Assembly: GCA_913043225.1 (NCBI GenBank)
Contig: CAJWLU010000004.1
Span: forward strand, 1-64,000
Direction of reading: 5' to 3'
DNA length: 64,000 bases
Source of the DNA: an uncultured Acidobacteriota bacterium
GTDB taxonomy: Bacteria > Acidobacteriota > Vicinamibacteria > Vicinamibacterales > UBA8438
The translations under genes and the position numbers were made by a program. The notes under the pieces are model-generated. The model worked only from the letters and a program-made list of their open reading frames with translations. It made no database searches and was not told where the DNA came from. Below, piece after piece: positions 52,609 to 61,336 of the stretch. How positions within the stretch are numbered: the stretch's first letter is position 1; every line of letters begins with the position of its first letter.

Positions 52609-53664
52609 TCAACTAAGCTCAATCGAACCGTCCACACGCATCAGCTCTGCATTGAGCAGCGCCGCGCCGGCCGCGCCCCTGACGGTGTTGTGACCCATCG
52701 CGACAAACTTGTGCCCCAGGACGGGACAGGCCCGGAGTCGACCGACCGACACAGCCATCCCCCGCTCCCGGTCAGCATCCAACCGTGGCTGCGGACGATC
52801 CCCCTCGGCGCGATAGATCACCGGCCGTGGTGGCGCACTCGGCAATGCCTCCTCCTGTGGACGCCCGATGAATGCACTCCACGCAGCGATCAGCGCGTCA
52901 CCCTCGACTGACTGGCCAAGTGCCACACTGACGAGCTCCATATGCCCGTTGATCACCGGCACTCGGGTCGTGGTCGCACTGACCACCACCGGATGCAGCG
53001 CGATTCCGCCATCCCCGAGCTCTCCGAGAATCTTCTGGGTCTCGGTCTCCATCTTCGGCTCTTCGCCTCGGATGAGCGGAAGAACGTTCCCGAGGATGTC
53101 GAGCGACGCCACACCCGGATACCCTCCACCCGAGACCGCCTGCTGCGTCGAGACGATGACCCGCTGCAATCCGAAGGTGCGGAGCGGCGCCAAGGCGAGT
53201 GCCAGCACGACCGTCGAGCAGTTCGGATTGGTAACGATCCGACCGTCCCAGCCACGCTCCGCCTGCTGCCGATCCAGGAGGGCCAGATGATCAGCGTTGA
53301 TCTCTGGAATTATGAGCGGGACGACCGGGTCCATCCGATGATTACTGGCGTTACTCACCACGATGTGGCCCGCCTGGGCGTATGCGATCTCCACCTCTCC
53401 CGCCACTGACGAATCGAGCCCGGAAAACAGCAGTCGCGGGGCATTACCAGGAACCACGCGTTCGACCGTCATCCTGGCCACGGCATCCGGGCGGGGAACG
53501 GGCAGCCGCCACTGGGTCGCCTCTTCATAGGCTTTGCCCGCAGACCGTTCGCTCGCGCCAATCCAGCTCACCTCGAACCACGGGTGATCCACTAGCTCAG
53601 CGATGAACTCCTGGCCCACGGTGCCGGTGGCACCCAGTATCCCGACCTCGATCTTCGCGCTCAT
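52609..53664 (-). CDS. asd: Aspartate-semialdehyde dehydrogenase (archaeal/fungal-type subfamily)
   Basis: GILGATGTVGQ, HPWF, ASERSAGK, PEINADH, catalytic NPNCS, HNTVRGAAGAALLNAE. Confidence 0.95.
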   Translation of the reverse strand: MSAKIEVGILGATGTVGQEFIAELVDHPWFEVSWIGASERSAGKAYEEATQWRLPVPRPDAVARMTVERVVPGNAPRLLFSGLDSSVAGEVEIAYAQAGHIVVSNASNHRMDPVVPLIIPEINADHLALLDRQQAERGWDGRIVTNPNCSTVVLALALAPLRTFGLQRVIVSTQQAVSGGGYPGVASLDILGNVLPLIRGEEPKMETETQKILGELGDGGIALHPVVVSATTTRVPVINGHMELVSVALGQSVEGDALIAAWSAFIGRPQEEALPSAPPRPVIYRAEGDRPQPRLDADRERGMAVSVGRLRACPVLGHKFVAMGHNTVRGAAGAALLNAELMRVDGSIELS

Positions 53665-53704: not shown

Positions 53705-54961
53705 CTATGCCGTCGCAGCCTCTGCCCCACCCGCCGGAAAGAACTCGGCATGCACCGATCGCGTCGCCTCCTCCAACCGATCCGCCGAGATTACGCAGGC
53801 CACCTTCATCTCCGACGAGCTGATGCAGTCGATATTGATTCCCTCGCGCGCCAGCACCGCGAACATCCTGGCCGCCAAGCCTGGCGTCGACGCCAAGCGC
53901 GACCCCACGATCGATATCTTCGCCACGTCATCCTCAACAACGCAACCGCTCGTGACCTTGTCGGCCTCCCATTGCTCCACAAGCTCGCGCGCGCCATCCA
54001 GAAACTCTTTATCGAGAATGAGCGTGATTCGACCCTGATGCGCTGAGCTGGCGCTCTGGATTATCAAGCGGATATTGATCCCAGCCGCCGCCAGGTCCTG
54101 AAACACACGAGCCGCAAGCCCGGGCTCGTCTGGCACATCCAGCAGAGTCACCTTGGCAATCTTCGCGTCACTGGTCACACTGATGACTTCCGCTCGTTCC
54201 ATGATCTCCTCACCTTCCCGAATCCAGGTACCTTCGCGCAGATGGAAGCTGCTCCTCACGTGGATGGGCACGTCATACTCCATGCACACCTCGGCCGCCC
54301 GCGGATGCAGTACCTTGGCTCCGCTCGACGCCATCTCGATCGCCTCCTCATAGCTGATAGCCGGCCACAACCGCGCGCCTGGCACCCGCGACGGGTCCGC
54401 TGAGAACACCCCGTCCACATCGGTGCAGATCTCACAGGCGTCGGCACCGAGCGCCGCCGCTAGCGCCGCACCGGTGATGTCGCTCCCGCCGCGACCCAAC
54501 GTGGTGACGTCGTTGGTCTCGTTAATCCCCTGAAACCCGGTCACGATGACGACCCGCCCACTGTCGAGCTCCTCGTGGATGCGCCCCGTGTCGATACTCC
54601 GGATCCGAGCGAAGTTAAAAACGCCGTCGGTCCGGATTCCGCACTGGAGCGCTGTCAACGACACTGCCGAGATGCCACGCGCCTGTAGCGCCAGGCCGAG
54701 CAGCGACACCGTGATCTGCTCGCCGGTAGACAGCAGCAGATCCATCTCGCGCCCTTCCGGCCGCTCGGACACCTGATGCGCTAGACCGACCAACTCATCG
54801 GTCGTGCTACCCATGGCCGAGAGGACCACGACGAGACGCGGCGTCTGGGTCAGATTCGACTCGATCCGGTCGGCAATCGCCAGAATCCGCTCCGCGGTTG
54901 CCACCGATGTTCCTCCGTACTTCTGGACCACCACCGGTGGCCTTTCTCCGCGCTCGCTCAT
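53705..54961 (-). CDS. lysC: Aspartate kinase with two ACT domains
   Basis: VQKYGGTSV, VLSAMG, TTLGRGGSD, TDVDGVFSADP, GAKVLHPR, ACT motifs DEPGLAARVF and TPGLAARMF. Confidence 0.96.
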   Translation of the reverse strand: MSERGERPPVVVQKYGGTSVATAERILAIADRIESNLTQTPRLVVVLSAMGSTTDELVGLAHQVSERPEGREMDLLLSTGEQITVSLLGLALQARGISAVSLTALQCGIRTDGVFNFARIRSIDTGRIHEELDSGRVVIVTGFQGINETNDVTTLGRGGSDITGAALAAALGADACEICTDVDGVFSADPSRVPGARLWPAISYEEAIEMASSGAKVLHPRAAEVCMEYDVPIHVRSSFHLREGTWIREGEEIMERAEVISVTSDAKIAKVTLLDVPDEPGLAARVFQDLAAAGINIRLIIQSASSAHQGRITLILDKEFLDGARELVEQWEADKVTSGCVVEDDVAKISIVGSRLASTPGLAARMFAVLAREGINIDCISSSEMKVACVISADRLEEATRSVHAEFFPAGGAEAATA

Positions 54962-54968
54962 GCCCTCC

Positions 54969-56261
54969 TCATCCGCGCACAGGCCGGCTCGCACCAGGGG
55001 CGCAGGCTCCCTCTCGAGCGTGCTCGCGCCCACTGCCCGGTGCCATCTTCGATCCGAGTTGGGTCGCCAGCTGGTGAAGAAACAGTCCCACGTCGGTCAC
55101 GATGCCAGCCGTCTGCGACGACCCTCGGTCGGCAAGCTTGGTCACCACCGCCGGATTGATATCAACGCACACGACACGGACCCATGCCGGCAACATATTG
55201 CCCACTCCGATACTGTGGAGCATGGACGAGAGCATCAGCACCAACCGAGCCCCTTGGAGCTGCTCAGCGTACCGCTCCTGCGCCTCGCTCAAATCCATGA
55301 TCGTGTCCGGCAGCGGGCCGTCGTCCCGGATGCTGCCAGCTAGAACAAACGGCACCTCACGACGAATCACCTCGTACATCAAGCCGCTCTGAAGCAGGCC
55401 CTCCGCGACGGCGCGTTCGATCCCCCCCACGCGGCGAATGGCATTGATGGCTCGCATGTGGTGCTTGTGTCCGTCATCGACCGCGACCCCGCGCTCGAGG
55501 TCGACCCCTAGCGAAGTACCGTAGAACGCATGTTCAACATCGTGCACCGCCAGCGCGTTCCCCGCCAAGAGACTGTCGATCCAGCCGTAGCGTACTAGCT
55601 GGCTTAGATAGCCGCTCCCGCCGCTGTGCACGACCACCGGTCCGGCCACCACGACGACACGCCCCCCGTCCGCCTTAACCTCCTGCATCATCCGAACGAC
55701 GCGCGCCACCGTCACCTCCACCCGTCGTTCGGTGGAGACATCGTTCGTCATGAACGCGAAGCCTAGCCGATCCCGCTCCTTGAATTCGGGCACTACGCGG
55801 ATCCCGTCCACGCCGCAAACGACCGGGTCTCCCGCCCGCACGTCGCGAAGCTTTCGGCAGGCAGCGCGACCGTCGCTGACAACGACGACCGCATCCATCC
55901 GCTGCCGTTTCACGTCGAGCCACTCTCCGTCGTGACGGACCTGGGTACGTTGGTTGGTCGTCGAATAGAAGTCGTCGGGCACGAACCCGTCGCCAGCCGG
56001 CTCCAGACGCGCATCCCGCTGGGGACGGGGATAACACCCCAGCGGCACAAGCTCTTCGAGCAGCTCGCGGAGCGCCTCTTCGGATTTGGTCGTGACCTGC
56101 AGCTGTAACCGTGAGAAGTCGTCATTGGTCCGTCCGATGGCAAAGTCTAGGACGTGATACTTCGCTCCTCGCTCGATCACCTTGTCGAACACGGAGGCCA
56201 ACAGACGGGAGTCGATCAGGTGACCTTCGGCCTCGACGATCTCGCTATGTCCATCGCTCAT
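54969..56261 (-). CDS. TIGR00300 family protein (LOR/SDH N-terminal domain plus DHS-like NAD-binding domain; ornithine cyclodeaminase-like)
   Basis: EAEGHLIDS, PDDFYSTTN, QRMD, GPVVVHSGG, LAGNALAVHDVE, LAGSIRDDGPLPD, MLHSIGVGNM, VDINPAVVTKLADRGS. Confidence 0.88.
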   Translation of the reverse strand: MSDGHSEIVEAEGHLIDSRLLASVFDKVIERGAKYHVLDFAIGRTNDDFSRLQLQVTTKSEEALRELLEELVPLGCYPRPQRDARLEPAGDGFVPDDFYSTTNQRTQVRHDGEWLDVKRQRMDAVVVVSDGRAACRKLRDVRAGDPVVCGVDGIRVVPEFKERDRLGFAFMTNDVSTERRVEVTVARVVRMMQEVKADGGRVVVVAGPVVVHSGGSGYLSQLVRYGWIDSLLAGNALAVHDVEHAFYGTSLGVDLERGVAVDDGHKHHMRAINAIRRVGGIERAVAEGLLQSGLMYEVIRREVPFVLAGSIRDDGPLPDTIMDLSEAQERYAEQLQGARLVLMLSSMLHSIGVGNMLPAWVRVVCVDINPAVVTKLADRGSSQTAGIVTDVGLFLHQLATQLGSKMAPGSGREHAREGACAPGASRPVRG

Positions 56262-56269
56262 CGTTGCGG

Positions 56270-57520
56270 TCACCGCACGCTCGCTTGAGCGGACCGTGAC
56301 GCCAGAAAGGCCTCGAACTCTTTCAAGGCTCGTCCGAGCCGCGTCGGCTGCTCGAGCTGATCGGCTACCACGTGCGACGTTTTGTAGCCGTTGCCAGTGA
56401 TGCACACAACCACCGACTCGTCACGCGGGATCACGCCAGCCTTAATCAGCTTGATCGCCACCGCGAGGGTTGTGCCGCCGGCTGGTTCGGTGAAGATCCC
56501 CTCAGTTCGCGCCAGCAGACCAACCGCGTCCAGGATCTCCCGGTCGGTGGCGCGCTCGCCCGAGCCGCCGCTCCCACGCACCGTCTCAAGCACTTGATGC
56601 CCGTCGGCAGGGTTCCCGATGGCGATCGACTTGGCGATGGTGTCCGGACGAACCGGCTCCGGATGAGTGGCGCCGCTCTCGAGCGCATTGATTACCGGGG
56701 CACAGCCAGCGGCCTGGGCCGCATGAATCCGCGGCAGCATCCCCTCGGTCAGCCCGACCTCACGCAGCTCACGGAACGCGCGGCCGATCCGAGGCAGCAG
56801 CGTGCCGCCGGCCACCGGCGACACGAGGTGCGTGGGATAGCGCCAGCCCAGCTGCTCGACAATCTCGAACGCGATGGTCTTCGCCCCTTCGGCGTAATAA
56901 CTCCTCAGGTTGATGTTCGCGAATGCCCAGCCATATCGGTCACCAACCTGAGTGCACAGACGGTTCACGTCATCATAGGTGCCGTCGATGCCAACCACGT
57001 GGGGCCCCGCTACTGCCGACCCCAGAATCTTGCCCGGCTCCAAACTCTGCGGAATAAAGACGTAGCACTCCAGGCCAAGCCTCGCCGCATGCGCGGCCAC
57101 ACTATTGCCTAGGTTGCCCGTAGACGCGCACCCGAAGGTATCGAAACCCAGTTCGATAGCCCGGGTCGCAGCCACCGGCACCACCCGGTCCTTGTAGGAC
57201 AGCGTGGGGTGATTGACGGAATCGTCTTTGATGTACAGCTCGTCGACGCCAAGCTCCCGGCCAAGCCGATGCGCCCGCACGAGCGGCGTGTAGCCTGAAT
57301 CGAGCCCGGTCAACGGCTCGCCATCAATCGGCAGTAGCTCCCGATACCGCCAGAGATTGTTGGGGCGTGCCTCGATGCTTTCGCGCGTCATCTCCCGCCG
57401 CACGAGGTCGTAGTCATAGACCGCCTCGAGCGGGCCCAGGCACTGGTCACAGACATACAGCGCTTTGGGGGCGAACGCGGTCTTGCACATTGCGCACTGC
57501 AACCCGATCAACGCACTCAT
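56270..57520 (-). CDS. thrC: Threonine synthase
   Basis: N-terminal CxxC...CxxC, LWRYRELLP, PLP lysine SYKDR, ASTGNLG, EGAKT, TGNGYK. Confidence 0.92.
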   Translation of the reverse strand: MSALIGLQCAMCKTAFAPKALYVCDQCLGPLEAVYDYDLVRREMTRESIEARPNNLWRYRELLPIDGEPLTGLDSGYTPLVRAHRLGRELGVDELYIKDDSVNHPTLSYKDRVVPVAATRAIELGFDTFGCASTGNLGNSVAAHAARLGLECYVFIPQSLEPGKILGSAVAGPHVVGIDGTYDDVNRLCTQVGDRYGWAFANINLRSYYAEGAKTIAFEIVEQLGWRYPTHLVSPVAGGTLLPRIGRAFRELREVGLTEGMLPRIHAAQAAGCAPVINALESGATHPEPVRPDTIAKSIAIGNPADGHQVLETVRGSGGSGERATDREILDAVGLLARTEGIFTEPAGGTTLAVAIKLIKAGVIPRDESVVVCITGNGYKTSHVVADQLEQPTRLGRALKEFEAFLASRSAQASVR

Positions 57521-58815
57521 ACCCCATCCTCCCCGTCGCTGAGGATCGGCAGCCAGACCGGCGCTTGCACATGGAAATCAAACCGCTCGATCTCGCCGAG
57601 CGCAGCGCTCACGGCCATCGAGCCGCAAGTCTCGAGCGTCATCACGAACGGCAGTTCCGTCTTCGACCATCCTGGCTCCTGGAGCACGGCGTCCACGTTA
57701 ACCCCATGCCGCGAGAACACCTCCGCAAGAGCGGCGATGATGCCCGGACGATCCGCGATTGTGAACCGGAGGTAGTGGCCCGCTTCGAAACCTTGCACCA
57801 CCCGAGCCGCCCGTTGTTTGTCGGGAAACAGATCCGTGGGAGCCACCGCCTGGCCGCGAGCCACAGCAACCAGGTCTGACACGACTGCCACTGCTGTGGG
57901 ATCGCCACCGGCGCCATAGCCGGAGAAGGCGGTTTCTCCACCATACCGTCCTTCCACGACGACGATGTTCTGGCTGCCGTCGACCCGGGCGAGCGGCGAG
58001 GCCTCGGGCACCAGAGACGGCCGCACCGAGGCGCGGACGCTCCCATCATCAAGCACCTCGGCCTGAGCGACCTGACGGATCACACATCCCAGCCGCCTGG
58101 CGTAGGCGAAGTCGATCGCCGCGACAGACGTCATGGAGGCCAGGGGAATGTCGTCGGCCGTGACCACCTGCCTCAGCCCTACCGCAAGCAGAATTGCCAG
58201 CTTGGCCTGCGCATCGAAGCCTTCAACATCGGCGGTCGGATCCGCTTCGGCGTAGCCCAACCGCTGTGCCTCGGCCAGCGCGTCTTCGAACGAGACCCCG
58301 TCAGCCTCCATGCTCGTCAGGATGTAATTGCAGGTGCCGTTGAGAATTCCGCTTACTCGGGTCAACCGATCGCCGGATACCCCGTCCCTCATCCCGCGCA
58401 CGATCGGGATGCCTCCAGCAACCGCCGCCTCGAACAGCAGCTGCGTCCCGTGACGACGTGCCTGACTCATCAGCTCGGTCCCAGCCTGTGCGATCACCTG
58501 CTTGTTGGCCGTAACCACAGGTATCCCTGCCAACAGCGCCCGGTCGATCCAGTCCCGGGCAGGCGAGGTGCCGCCAATCAACTCGACAACGACATCGACC
58601 TCGGCGGCGAGCAGATCGTCGAACGATTCAGTCCACACGACATCCGGACCGGTCCAATCGACTCGCTTCGACGCGACATTGCGGTTAAAGACATGGGTTA
58701 GCGTGAGCTCGGCGTGCACTCCACTGGTCAGAATTTTGGCTACGGACTGGCCTACGGTGCCAAAACCGGCAATGGCGACCCGACACTGCCGGGACCGCGC
58801 GGACTCGCTCGTCAT
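57517..58815 (-). CDS. hom: Homoserine dehydrogenase with C-terminal ACT domain
   Basis: GFGTVG, VVTANK, FEAAVAGGIP, GILNGTCNYIL, GYAEADPTADVEG, GAGGDPTA, DRPGIIA. Confidence 0.96.
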   Translation of the reverse strand: MTSESARSRQCRVAIAGFGTVGQSVAKILTSGVHAELTLTHVFNRNVASKRVDWTGPDVVWTESFDDLLAAEVDVVVELIGGTSPARDWIDRALLAGIPVVTANKQVIAQAGTELMSQARRHGTQLLFEAAVAGGIPIVRGMRDGVSGDRLTRVSGILNGTCNYILTSMEADGVSFEDALAEAQRLGYAEADPTADVEGFDAQAKLAILLAVGLRQVVTADDIPLASMTSVAAIDFAYARRLGCVIRQVAQAEVLDDGSVRASVRPSLVPEASPLARVDGSQNIVVVEGRYGGETAFSGYGAGGDPTAVAVVSDLVAVARGQAVAPTDLFPDKQRAARVVQGFEAGHYLRFTIADRPGIIAALAEVFSRHGVNVDAVLQEPGWSKTELPFVMTLETCGSMAVSAALGEIERFDFHVQAPVWLPILSDGEDGV

Positions 58816-58874
58816 GACGTTCACTCGCACCGTCGTGGACTGCGCCAACCCCTACGGAGGCCACCGCGTCGGGT

Positions 58875-58912
58875 AAAAAAGAAGGCCATCACCCAGGTGC
58901 GGATGATGGCCT
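58875..58912 (-). terminator. Intrinsic (attenuator) terminator in the hom leader
   Basis: Minus strand AGGCCATCATCC-GCACCT-GGGTGATGGCCT (12-bp stem, one G-U) followed by TCTTTTTT. Confidence 0.88.
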
Positions 58913-58942
58913 CGTTTCGTCTACCTTTACCGCTCAGCTACA

Positions 58943-59023
58943 TCATCCGCTCTGCCCGAGCCTAGCCGGCGCCATGGTGGCCGTCGTCGGACCAGGCAGG
59001 CAAATCGGAAAAATCGCGCTCAT
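58943..59023 (-). CDS. Putative attenuator leader peptide (26 aa, MSAIFPICLPGPTTATMAPARLGQSG)
   Basis: Manual translation; ACG-ACG-GCC-ACC-ATG cluster; stop codon lies inside a 10-nt segment complementary to the terminator 5' arm; RBS is weak (AGG only). Confidence 0.7.
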   Translation of the reverse strand: MSAIFPICLPGPTTATMAPARLGQSG

Positions 59024-59066
59024 CAGGGACCTAAACTGAGGGCGTTTGGGACCCTCAAGCCCTTAT

Positions 59067-59096
59067 TTTATACACTGATAGCGGCATCCAAGTCAA
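59067..59096 (-). promoter_or_regulatory. Sigma70-type promoter of the leader-hom operon
   Basis: Minus strand TTGACT-18 nt-TATAAA. Confidence 0.65.
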
Positions 59097-59112
59097 TCGC
59101 GCCGGTGCCCGG

Positions 59113-59141
59113 TTGACACCCGCAGACCCGAAGAGTAGTAT
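59113..59141 (+). promoter_or_regulatory. Sigma70-type promoter of the murQ operon (divergent)
   Basis: TTGACA-17 nt-TAGTAT. Confidence 0.7.
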
Positions 59142-59168
59142 CCGCCGCATTCTCAGAGGCAGGCTCGT

Positions 59169-60125
59169 ATGTCCACCCGCTCCAAGTGGCAATCGCTCCC
59201 CACCGAGGCCATCAACCTAAACACCCTGTCGATGGACCAGGCGTCCACTGAGGAGATCATCACCCTGATGCTCCAGGAGGACCGCAAGGCCATCACCGCG
59301 GTCCAGCGGGAGAAGCAGCGAATCGCCGTCGGCGCCGAACTGATCACCGAGGCCTTTCGGCGAGGTGGCCGACTCGTGTTCGTCGGCGCGGGCACCAGCG
59401 GCCGGCTCGGCGTACTTGAAGCGGCAGAGATGCTGCCCACTTTCGGCACACCACCCCGCCTGATCCAAGCGATTATGGCTGGCGGCCGGGAAGCCTTCTT
59501 CACCCCCCGCGAGGGCGTCGAGGACAATTTCGAAGAGGGCAGCCGCGCGATCAGCCGGCTGCGCCTGACCAATCGAGACGTGCTCATCGGCGTGTCAGCC
59601 AGTGGGATGACGCAGTTCGTTCGTGGAGCGTTGACCCGGGCCCGTCGAACCGGCGTCAAGATCATATTCGTGACCTGCTGGCCGGGCACCGAGTTACAGA
59701 CCTTCGTCGACGTGATCATCGCTCCGGCCGTGGGCCCGGAGGTCATCGCGGGCTCGACTCGACTAAAAGCGGGCAGCGCCACCAAGATGGTCTTGAATAT
59801 GTTGACCACCATCTCGATGGTGCATATCGGCAAGACCTACGGCAACCTCATGGTCGATGTGCAGACCGGATCGGAACAACGACGCGACCGAGCTCGCGGC
59901 ATCATCACCATGGTGACCGGGCTGGACTATGACGCCGCGGGCGCGTTGCTCAAGCGCGCGCGGTGGAACGTCAAGGCTGCCATCGTGATGGAACGGACCG
60001 GCGACACCTACGGCAAGGCGATCGGAAGACTTAAACGGGCCGGCGACTCGGTACGTAACGCCATCGGGGAAGACGTCGAGCCCCGCCTCCGCGAACGCCT
60101 CCGCCACGGGCGGGTCTCCCCCTAG
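59169..60125 (+). CDS. murQ: N-acetylmuramic acid 6-phosphate etherase
   Basis: LPTEAIN, GAGTSGRLGVLEAAE, EGVED, SASG, GPEVIAGSTRLKAG, KTYGNLMVDV. Confidence 0.93.
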   Translation: MSTRSKWQSLPTEAINLNTLSMDQASTEEIITLMLQEDRKAITAVQREKQRIAVGAELITEAFRRGGRLVFVGAGTSGRLGVLEAAEMLPTFGTPPRLIQAIMAGGREAFFTPREGVEDNFEEGSRAISRLRLTNRDVLIGVSASGMTQFVRGALTRARRTGVKIIFVTCWPGTELQTFVDVIIAPAVGPEVIAGSTRLKAGSATKMVLNMLTTISMVHIGKTYGNLMVDVQTGSEQRRDRARGIITMVTGLDYDAAGALLKRARWNVKAAIVMERTGDTYGKAIGRLKRAGDSVRNAIGEDVEPRLRERLRHGRVSP

Positions 60126-60139
60126 CGCCAGAAAGCGAA

Positions 60140-61336
60140 ATGACGAGGGGCAGGCGACGCAAGCTACTCGGCGTGCTCCTGGGCGTGCTTCTCGGCGCAC
60201 TCCTAGCGCCGAACTCTGCCGCCGCAGAGCGTGGCCTCTGGGTACGCACTGCGACATGGCAGGACCCGCTACGTGCCGCCCGGCTCATCGCCGACGCCGC
60301 GGCCACCGGCTTCACGCTCCTGCTGCTGGACGTGCCGCTGGATGACGCTCCAGGAGCCAGCTCAACAAGACGCGACGAGGCACTCCATGCGTTCATCGCC
60401 AGCGCCAAGGTCCGGGGGCTGCAGGTTCACGCCTGGGTCCAGGCCAGCCGGATCCTGGCCGCGGGGGCGCTCCCCGCCTCGGGCGATCACCCGGTCCGGA
60501 CCTACCCCGAGTGGGTGATGGTACCTAGGGAGCTAGCCACCGAACTCGCCAGGCTCGACGCGCACAACCCCGCCTATCTGGGCGCGCTCGCCCGCTGGGC
60601 GCGCGATCGCGCCGACGAGGTAGACGGTCTGTATCTGTCGCCGCTCGTTCCCGCCGCGGCGGAATTTCTCGCCGATCGCCTCGGTGCCCTGCTCAACCGG
60701 GTTCCCTTTGACGGCGTCCAGTTCGAGTCCGCTTACCTCCCGAGCAGCGACTTCGATTTCGGCGCACTCGCCGTGCGGCTGTTCCGTGAAGAGGTTGCAT
60801 CGAGACTGCCCCCCCTCGAGCGTCGTCAGCACGACGCTCGATCCGCCATCGATCCCCGCACCTATCCCGACGCGTTCCCACAGCAGTGGAGCCGATTCCG
60901 CCGCTCGCGCGTCACGGCACTCATCGCGCGGCTCGGCGCCCGTGCTCGTCAAGCGCGTCCCGGCATTCACGTCAGCGTGCTGGTCGCCGCCGACCCGGAC
61001 GAGGCCTTGGGACGCCACCAGCAAGACTGGCGCACCTGGGTAGAGATAGGGCTTGTTGATGCAATCTGCCTAGCGCCAGGCACCGAAATGCCGGGTGAAT
61101 TCAGCCAGCACCTCGTCGACGCCTCGACCATTGCCGGCACCGCGGCACTGTGGACCGGCGTGGCCGCCCATCGGCTGTCTCCTAGCGACACCCTTGCACG
61201 GATACGTACCGCTCGCCGGATCGGCGTCGACGGCCTGCTGGTCTGGTCCTACGACACCGTGATCGACTCGACCCGACAGCCTCCGGGGCACCTTCAGCAG
61301 ATCGGCCTCGCACTCTCGACCGGTGACCAACGCTAA
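60140..61336 (+). CDS. Secreted glycoside hydrolase-like 10 (YddW/DigH-like) protein, divergent
   Basis: Signal peptide; RGLWV, GLQVHAWV, HP...PEW, YLSP, FDGVQFE, QDWRTW. Confidence 0.72.
   Translation: MTRGRRRKLLGVLLGVLLGALLAPNSAAAERGLWVRTATWQDPLRAARLIADAAATGFTLLLLDVPLDDAPGASSTRRDEALHAFIASAKVRGLQVHAWVQASRILAAGALPASGDHPVRTYPEWVMVPRELATELARLDAHNPAYLGALARWARDRADEVDGLYLSPLVPAAAEFLADRLGALLNRVPFDGVQFESAYLPSSDFDFGALAVRLFREEVASRLPPLERRQHDARSAIDPRTYPDAFPQQWSRFRRSRVTALIARLGARARQARPGIHVSVLVAADPDEALGRHQQDWRTWVEIGLVDAICLAPGTEMPGEFSQHLVDASTIAGTAALWTGVAAHRLSPSDTLARIRTARRIGVDGLLVWSYDTVIDSTRQPPGHLQQIGLALSTGDQR

Follow-up and report, generated by a model that had tools for sequence, protein, structure and literature searches.

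Predicted threonine- and methionine-responsive attenuation upstream of hom in an acidobacterial genome, on a core shared with other amino-acid operons

Which signals decide whether the hom-thrC-TIGR00300-lysC-asd operon of an uncultured Acidobacteriota bacterium is transcribed is a question raised by the short interval preceding hom in the window (i.e., the whole stretch of 64,000 nucleotides analysed here). A preliminary description of this interval had proposed a leader-peptide transcription attenuator of the thrL type with Thr, Met, and Ile codons. On the basis of its computed anatomy, conservation, codon bias, and folds, the hom leader very probably attenuates transcription in a ribosome-mediated manner, with charged tRNA-Thr and tRNA-Met as the signals read. 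Most likely, it represents a real, conserved, and classical attenuator of textbook principle, and its Thr and Met variant, set on a lineage-wide reusable core, would be new.

In literature that covered few subscription papers, neither this element nor any amino-acid leader attenuator of Acidobacteriota was found to be reported, and the supplements of PMC4833913 and PMC2965389 may list candidates. Leader genes in Acidobacteria are counted only for their spacing in PMC4833913, and almost no predicted attenuators of Acidobacteria in a 2010 screen had a function (PMC2965389). Against this near absence of functional predictions, the hom leader would place amino-acid-sensing leader attenuation in the phylum.

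Anatomy of the hom leader and its proposed mode of action

The promoter and its spacer, the 5' hairpin, the 26-codon ORF, and the T-T-A-T-M codons all lie where the preliminary description had located them, as checked on sequence and fold (Table 1). The promoter is missed by a consensus scanner, which does not call it because the last base of the -10 hexamer is A. The leader ORF has no Shine–Dalgarno sequence, and motifs of this kind precede only 351 of the 1093 long ORFs of this genome. The 10-mer at 58950-58941, which carries the stop codon of the ORF, is confirmed on the sequence as the perfect complement of 58908-58899, and the antiterminator of this leader can be extended by three further pairs beyond a 2-nt bulge that also creates a second stop in the +2 frame. 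Regarding the terminator, its position and U tract had been correctly described, but the stem comprises 13-14 pairs counting G-U instead of the 12 bp proposed. The computed energies for this leader are -19.9 kcal/mol for the antiterminator versus -21.7 kcal/mol for the terminator; the leader fold has a z of -3.6, and none of 200 shuffles was as stable. A genome-wide script searching 3.85 Mb for a uORF stop with a complementary perfect terminator retrieved the hom site as its sole match, the strict stem rule missing the ilvD and cys copies presented below. Hammerhead-like words seen by eye in the leader were discarded, as they are not conserved in relatives, and Rfam gave no ribozyme.

Table 1. 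Features of the hom leader and the downstream operon (window coordinates; energies are computed)
Feature	Position	Strand	Basis
-35 hexamer, sigma-70-type promoter (predicted)	59091..59096	-	TTGACT; sequence read
-10 hexamer (predicted)	59067..59072	-	18-nt spacer to -35
5' hairpin ahead of uORF start	about 59027..59062	-	minimum-energy fold
26-codon leader ORF, ATG start, ending Gly-stop within the antiterminator strand	58943..59023	-	sequence
Putative regulatory codons Thr-Thr-Ala-Thr-Met	58973..58987	-	codons 13-17, i.e., -14 to -10 from the stop
Possible protector (1:2) hairpin in uORF, -36.9 kcal/mol	58937..59020	-	computed fold
Antiterminator 5' strand: last codons, stop, and 2-nt bulge	58936..58950	-	sequence, fold
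Shared switch strand: terminator 5' arm and part of loop	58899..58913	-	alternative partners: antiterminator strand, 3' arm
Intrinsic terminator: hairpin 58913-58882 (-21.7 kcal/mol) and U tract 58880-58875 (six U)	58875..58913	-	fold
hom, homoserine dehydrogenase, first regulated gene (predicted)	57517..58815	-	NCBIfam PRK06349, 411 bits, over cut-off
thrC, threonine synthase; start overlaps hom stop	56270..57520	-	TIGR00260 over cut-off
TIGR00300, NCBIfam name nickel-pincer-dependent ornithine cyclodeaminase	54969..56261	-	525 bits, over cut-off
lysC, aspartate kinase	53705..54961	-	PRK06635 models over cut-off
asd, aspartate-semialdehyde dehydrogenase	52609..53664	-	TIGR00978 over cut-off

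From these parts, we infer the following course of events. RNA polymerase would start near 59060, the predicted transcription start, with a ribosome following on the 26-codon ORF. When Thr or Met is short, the ribosome would stall at codons 13-17 and leave free the strand around the stop, which could pair with the emerging 5' arm and loop of the terminator; this antiterminator pairing would block the terminator, and hom-thrC-TIGR00300-lysC-asd would be transcribed. When both Thr and Met are plentiful, the ribosome would stand at the last five codons or the stop and cover the antiterminator strand, allowing the terminator to fold and transcription to end near 58875. The switch half of the device is a core common to the predicted attenuators of other Vicinamibacterales amino-acid genes, the sensor codons alone being different. 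Reinitiation onto hom was considered unlikely, since 128 nt separate the uORF stop from the hom ATG downstream.

The genes of the operon are closely spaced, and the order hom-thrC-TIGR00300-lysC is found in 14 of the 15 close named loci, the contig of the fifteenth ending within hom. TIGR00300 keeps its place between thrC and lysC of a threonine operon in these 14 loci. The divergent murQ (59113-60125, plus strand) has a promoter-like sequence at 59113-59141 that matches in 10 of 12 positions and stands back to back with that of hom; in 12 of the 15 loci, murQ is likewise found upstream and in the opposite orientation. Four marine RNA runs contained 5-19% of the sequence words, all as assembled contigs, with scattered pieces over 56200-59400; one RNA contig spans 58737-58894 and extends too few bases beyond the U tract to qualify as bridging, and no transcript start or end was readable.

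Conservation upstream of hom

The hom upstream regions were compared in 36 genomes of the own family (including this one), 14 regions from other families of the order, and 52 named loci. The core, i.e., the terminator together with the stop-bearing antiterminator strand, precedes hom in 35 of the 36 own-family (Vicinamibacterales) genomes, a count to which L029 was added by hand after the pattern had missed it, as well as in 2 of the 14 other regions, one of which (L042) is misplaced, and in 15 of the 52 named loci. In G050, also among the 14, the core is located one gene further up, before ilvE. After removal of six duplicates, 46 distinct hom leaders were obtained. An ATG ORF ending in the antiterminator strand is present in 39 of them, in 37 cases at or next to the first stop; in L004 and L050 the Thr/Met-rich frame is shifted and ends at the second (+2 frame) stop of the same strand. 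The stop is kept even where its identity varies (TAA in L025, TAG in the ilvB copy L313), and 33 of the 46 leaders show a -35/-10 pattern at 130-159 nt ahead of the antiterminator, against none in the reversed control. The comparison of related hom upstream regions, which the preliminary description had proposed as a check, reveals a uORF stop, Thr/Met codons, and a terminator/antiterminator pair that are conserved in the own family. A +2-frame mini-ORF reading Met-Met-stop was dismissed as a candidate for the main ORF, since about ten leaders that retain the first stop have lost that of the mini-ORF. Among 50 loci lacking the core, most of them distant hom loci, the core model R1 gave no credible match.

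The seven leaders without such an ATG ORF consist of five g8-type leaders, the degenerate L012, and L020, with a TTG start only. In the g8-type (L018, L023, L024, L063, and L069), the terminator is kept, the antiterminator is partly compensated, and the first stop is lost; the remaining +2-frame ATG ORF is devoid of Thr/Met, which suggests a decayed or rewired switch.

The degenerate look of the g8-type and L012 leaders, together with the few regulatory codons of the present copy (only three Thr and one internal Met), raises the possibility that the switch has decayed to a fixed, leaky terminator in this genome too. This is improbable, given that the start, frame, stop, 10-pair antiterminator, terminator, and promoter are all intact here and that a leader of the same genus retains all parts, with five Thr and one internal Met. 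In the attenuation model of PMC1183508, so few regulatory codons lower the sensitivity, which is a point against the attenuator reading for this copy.

A stable leader fold ahead of aspartate-family genes could also be that of a riboswitch or T-box (SAM, lysine, or tRNA-Thr) accompanied by an incidental ORF. The T-box, SAM, and lysine riboswitch models of Rfam, whose exclusion had likewise been proposed at the outset, gave no match at E up to 10 in 57500-60500, and no Rfam family reached its gathering score in ten related loci. Moreover, the conservation upstream of the core is that of the codons of one frame and not that of a structure, leaving this explanation with a very low probability. 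Similarly, the Rfam Thr_leader family (RF00506) gave no match at the site (E up to 10) and none over the cut-off in the genome; its control was over the cut-off in 1 of 14.

Regulatory codons and the folding of the switch

In the 39 hom leader ORFs, codons -8 to -20 (the first three codons excluded) comprise 27.8% Thr, 10.4% Met, and 3.9% Ile, compared with 6.0, 1.8, and 4.1%, respectively, in the long ORFs of this genome, taken as the proteome reference. Without any choice of ORF, the 18 codons before the antiterminator strand contain 19.7% Thr, 6.8% Met, and 1.8% Ile in the frame of the stop (46 leaders), versus 2-3% Thr and 0-0.8% Met in the other two frames. Relative to shuffles of the 46 leaders, enrichment reaches z = 17 for Thr and 22 for Met, values that are overstated because the genomes are kin, and z = 1.0 for Ile. 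Across 17 genera or families, the proteome level is exceeded in 17 for Thr, 13 for Met, and 8 for Ile. Furthermore, Thr and Met together represent 38% of codons -8 to -20 versus 8% of the last seven. Thr and Met are thereby supported as the predicted signals of the hom leader, as had been suggested, both by this frame-specific enrichment and by a paired control with ilvD leaders (see below). Ile, named with them in the preliminary description, is not supported as a general signal, its share being at background.

The question arises of whether Thr alone is read, Met codons being non-regulatory products of ACG-to-ATG drift or spare starts. ACG and ATG are one transition apart, Met is missing at -8 to -20 in 4 of the 17 genera or families, and picking the most upstream ATG makes later starts count as internal Met. 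However, the same transition from ACC gives Ile, yet the ratio of ATG to ACG is 56:66 in leaders that use all four Thr codons, compared with 9:69 for ATC to ACC, and this near parity of ATG and ACG next to the rarity of ATC argues against simple drift from Thr codons. In addition, Met still amounts to 10.4% once the first three codons are left out, its enrichment peaking at -8 to -10, and the eight thrA leaders on the same core contain Ile (14%) instead of Met (3%); they are the only copies of this core with Thr and Ile as regulatory codons (Thr 41%). Taken together, a leader sensing only Thr is rather unlikely.

A different sensor would be the nascent peptide itself, arresting the ribosome as in TnaC or SpeFL with a metabolite bound in the ribosome tunnel, to which a similar C-terminal decapeptide retained in a subclade and the ornithine-cyclodeaminase-family gene of the operon could point. 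Nevertheless, the peptides diverge between genera although their composition is maintained; near-invariance is limited to the last Gly (36 of 39 ORFs, against 30 of 39 for Thr at -11), a residue dictated by the RNA helix, and two leaders end in another frame. Peptide arrest is accordingly a most improbable reading.

A Met signal is plausible at the hom, lysC, and asd steps, shared by both amino acids, considering general pathway knowledge and the gene content of this genome: metH and thrB are present over the cut-off, a metX-like gene scores 440 of 500 bits and is below it, and a SAM-I riboswitch was not found in the genome (96% complete). A citramalate route as the cause of the lack of Ile codons was rejected, as no cimA over the cut-off was found in the genome and an ilvA-like gene is present. 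Vitreschak et al. reportedly predicted in 2004 a Thr/Ile/Met attenuator of thrA in Pasteurellales, and a broad survey is said to have been made by Lopatovskaya et al. in 2010. Met codons would act as a signal both there and in the hom leader, in each case at one aspartate-pathway entry that also feeds Met synthesis; Ile, reportedly kept in Pasteurellales, is not enriched here. To our knowledge, Met as a ribosome-read signal otherwise rests only on that Pasteurellales prediction, and its prediction for the hom leader is therefore of interest.

Among characterized systems, the closest likeness is to E. coli thrL, which also consists of a short ORF ending in Gly-TGA, with its last codons and stop complementary to the 5' arm of the terminator, and carries Thr codons ahead of aspartate-kinase/homoserine-dehydrogenase genes. 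The distance from the stop to the U tract is about 46 nt in thrL versus about 62 in the hom leader, and the phyla differ. Moreover, thrL contains eight Thr, four Ile, and no internal Met codons, whereas hom leaders combine Thr and Met with Ile at background.

As for the switch, terminator covariation is strong, with 95% of cells paired, 7 of 13 pairs changed on both sides, and 0 of 500 shuffles as high. For the antiterminator it is modest within the hom set (90% paired, mostly invariant, eight double changes, 14 of 500 shuffles as high). When the nascent transcripts of the 39 leaders were folded with a simulated ribosome masking the RNA, the antiterminator formed (median P about 0.99) with the A site at least six codons before the stop and did not form with the A site within three. 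With the full hairpin present, the terminator has a P of about 1 for nearly all placements of the ribosome; since the terminator wins at equilibrium once its hairpin is complete, control must be kinetic. In nascent RNA without a ribosome, the P of the antiterminator is 0.98 in this leader, and its median is 0.56 across the 39. The protector hairpin scored 0.66 across relatives versus 0.58 in codon-shuffled controls, being above the control in 29 of 39 leaders with no fixed register. Since a conserved protector hairpin could not be shown, an ATG knockout has no clear predicted outcome. Folding of both states nonetheless bears out the mutually exclusive pairing of antiterminator and terminator, and the ribosome-mask results fit the logic of thrL. 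Hence, the conserved stop in the antiterminator strand, the frame-specific codons, the matched codons at paralogous copies, and the modelled folds together argue for thrL-type ribosome-mediated attenuation, in agreement with the original proposal.

A core shared with other amino-acid genes

The core is common to other operons, a finding of the pattern scans that goes beyond the scope of the preliminary description. The exact core pattern occurs in 69 of 166 other genomes of the order and 1 of 134 in the other orders of the class, a tally including the unpublished G269, the sequence of which was excluded from codon composition, and in 1 of 359 in other classes; the reversed pattern occurs in 0 of 301 and 0 of 401 genomes. 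Many own-family genomes harbour two copies. The loci read comprise 30 of the order-scan matches, 20 further second copies, 2 from other classes, and 80 of at least 120 metagenome stretches. NCBIfam or Pfam supplied the names of the downstream genes for 31 plus 30 proteins, and the remaining ones were grouped by shared sequence words or by eye. The codon shares upstream of the core differ between gene classes (Table 2), and it should be considered that the stop is part of the search pattern, whereas the frame of the biased codons is not.

Table 2. Codon shares at -8 to -20, in the frame of the stop, of leaders on the same core
Downstream gene	Leaders	Codon shares
hom	49	Thr 24, Met 9, Ile 2%
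thrA/lysC	8	Thr 41, Ile 14, Met 3%
ilvD	49	Val 31, Ile 10, Thr 1%
ilvB	5	Ile 23, Val 14%
ilvA	1	Ile 23%
pheA (leading into ilvD; by eye, one locus)	12	Val 23, Phe 8%
LysR (leading into leuA; by eye, one locus)	9	Leu 56%
cys genes (one cysG, one PALP enzyme resembling cysteine synthase)	2	Cys 42%

In all 17 genomes with both copies, Thr and Met are higher in the hom leader, and Val, Ile, and Leu are higher in the ilvD leader. In this genome, the two full-length R1 matches are the hom leader and a copy (L296, at G000:C1:8154-8077, minus strand) with promoter-like hexamers and a Val-rich 24-codon ORF, located before ilvD-ilvB-ilvN-ilvC. The same logic is found in E. coli ilvL, ivbL, and leuL as in the Val/Ile/Leu copies before ilvD, ilvB, ilvA, and LysR. 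When the three bases before the stop were left open in the metagenome scan, 79 of 81 matches had GGA or GGG there, the triplets needed for the antiterminator to pair. Over 168 copies, the two pairs that extend into the loop of the terminator score above every one of 2000 shuffles, the copies being kin and not independent. Diverged copies in other classes, recovered with R1 before ilvA (L325) and ilvB (L313), have changed the antiterminator strand, the 5' arm, and the 3' arm together while keeping the stop, i.e., with three-strand compensation.

The near-invariance of the core over unrelated operons could alternatively be imposed by a common trans-acting factor, an RNA-binding protein or a small RNA, that binds it and controls termination by itself or together with the ribosome. 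In this genome, a stretch of 14 straight bases is identical between the hom and ilvD copies, compared with 8 for E. coli thrL and ilvL. However, the three-way pairing and the stop codon already constrain change, and conserved complementary triples in antiterminator and terminator are known in the actinobacterial trp and leuS attenuators (PMC1262725). Distant copies alter the sequence and retain the pairing and the stop, and one common factor would leave the operon-specific codons unexplained. Such a factor is thus improbable.

The 8-base terminator word shared by thrL and ilvL is a small precedent for a shared core, other E. coli pairs sharing at most 7 bases, and the acidobacterial copies differ from it in having a near-invariant three-strand core and a fixed stop place in at least eight gene classes. 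One His leader type occurs at two genes in Bacillus, hisS*/hisZ (PMC2965389). One amino acid is kept in the latter and in the actinobacterial trp/leuS attenuators (PMC1262725), in contrast to the single core with different amino acids found here.

A broader reading, for which the chances appear evenly balanced, is that the hom leader is one copy of a portable Acidobacteriota cassette: a fixed stop/antiterminator/terminator core may have been copied before unrelated genes and retuned only by the upstream codons (Thr and Met, Thr and Ile, Val and Ile, Ile, Leu, or Cys), with Met being read by the ribosome in place of a SAM riboswitch. If true, leader codons would predict the functions of unknown downstream genes, such as a 55-residue protein behind Leu/Ile leaders and a HAD hydrolase behind leaders ending near Pro-Pro-Gly, and the copies would offer a natural series for the origin of new attenuators. 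One switch core with swapped sensor codons in several pathways bears on whether attenuators arise afresh or are captured. Having a single scaffold would make this question testable by codon swaps and might yield a modular component of amino-acid biosensors.

Some copies do not fit a cognate pattern, namely one before gltB (no ORF) and those before two MFS transporters and seven HAD hydrolases, which show no obvious cognate run. About ten weak R1 matches in other classes (e.g., L306, L308-L312, and L318-L320) were rejected, as no leader ORF before an amino-acid gene was found. The HAD-family hydrolase copies (L168, L177, L193, L213, L217, L219, and L240) have no amino-acid run, and four of these leaders carry Pro-Pro-Gly near the end, possibly a proline/EF-P or other stall signal. 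In L105, L123, L124, L169, L173, L178, L196, L197, and L210 (probably also L126, L127, and L215), the core precedes an uncharacterised protein of 52-60 residues with a conserved C-terminal hexapeptide, and the leaders are Leu/Ile-rich (Leu 38%, Ile 19%). An Atlas search with this protein gave no match above 0.83, only sub-threshold leads.

Cys leaders occur both on and off the core: in this genome, a leader with five Cys codons and a terminator lies ahead of sulfate-assimilation genes (G000:C2 near 190741, minus strand) and has a different core, and two cys loci of relatives (L132 and L162) use the shared one. Leaders that mix Leu, Thr, and Met codons are found at the ilvE copies L108 (G050) and L208; since ilvE is the gene immediately preceding hom in G050, the mixture there matches both pathways. 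In another class, L316 (G439) shows five consecutive Tyr codons and a terminator before a gene for phenylalanine 4-monooxygenase, which makes tyrosine, with a weak match to the core model. Finally, L190 contains two core copies about 440 bases apart, each with a Leu-rich ORF, on either side of a short LysR piece, which may reflect a local duplication.
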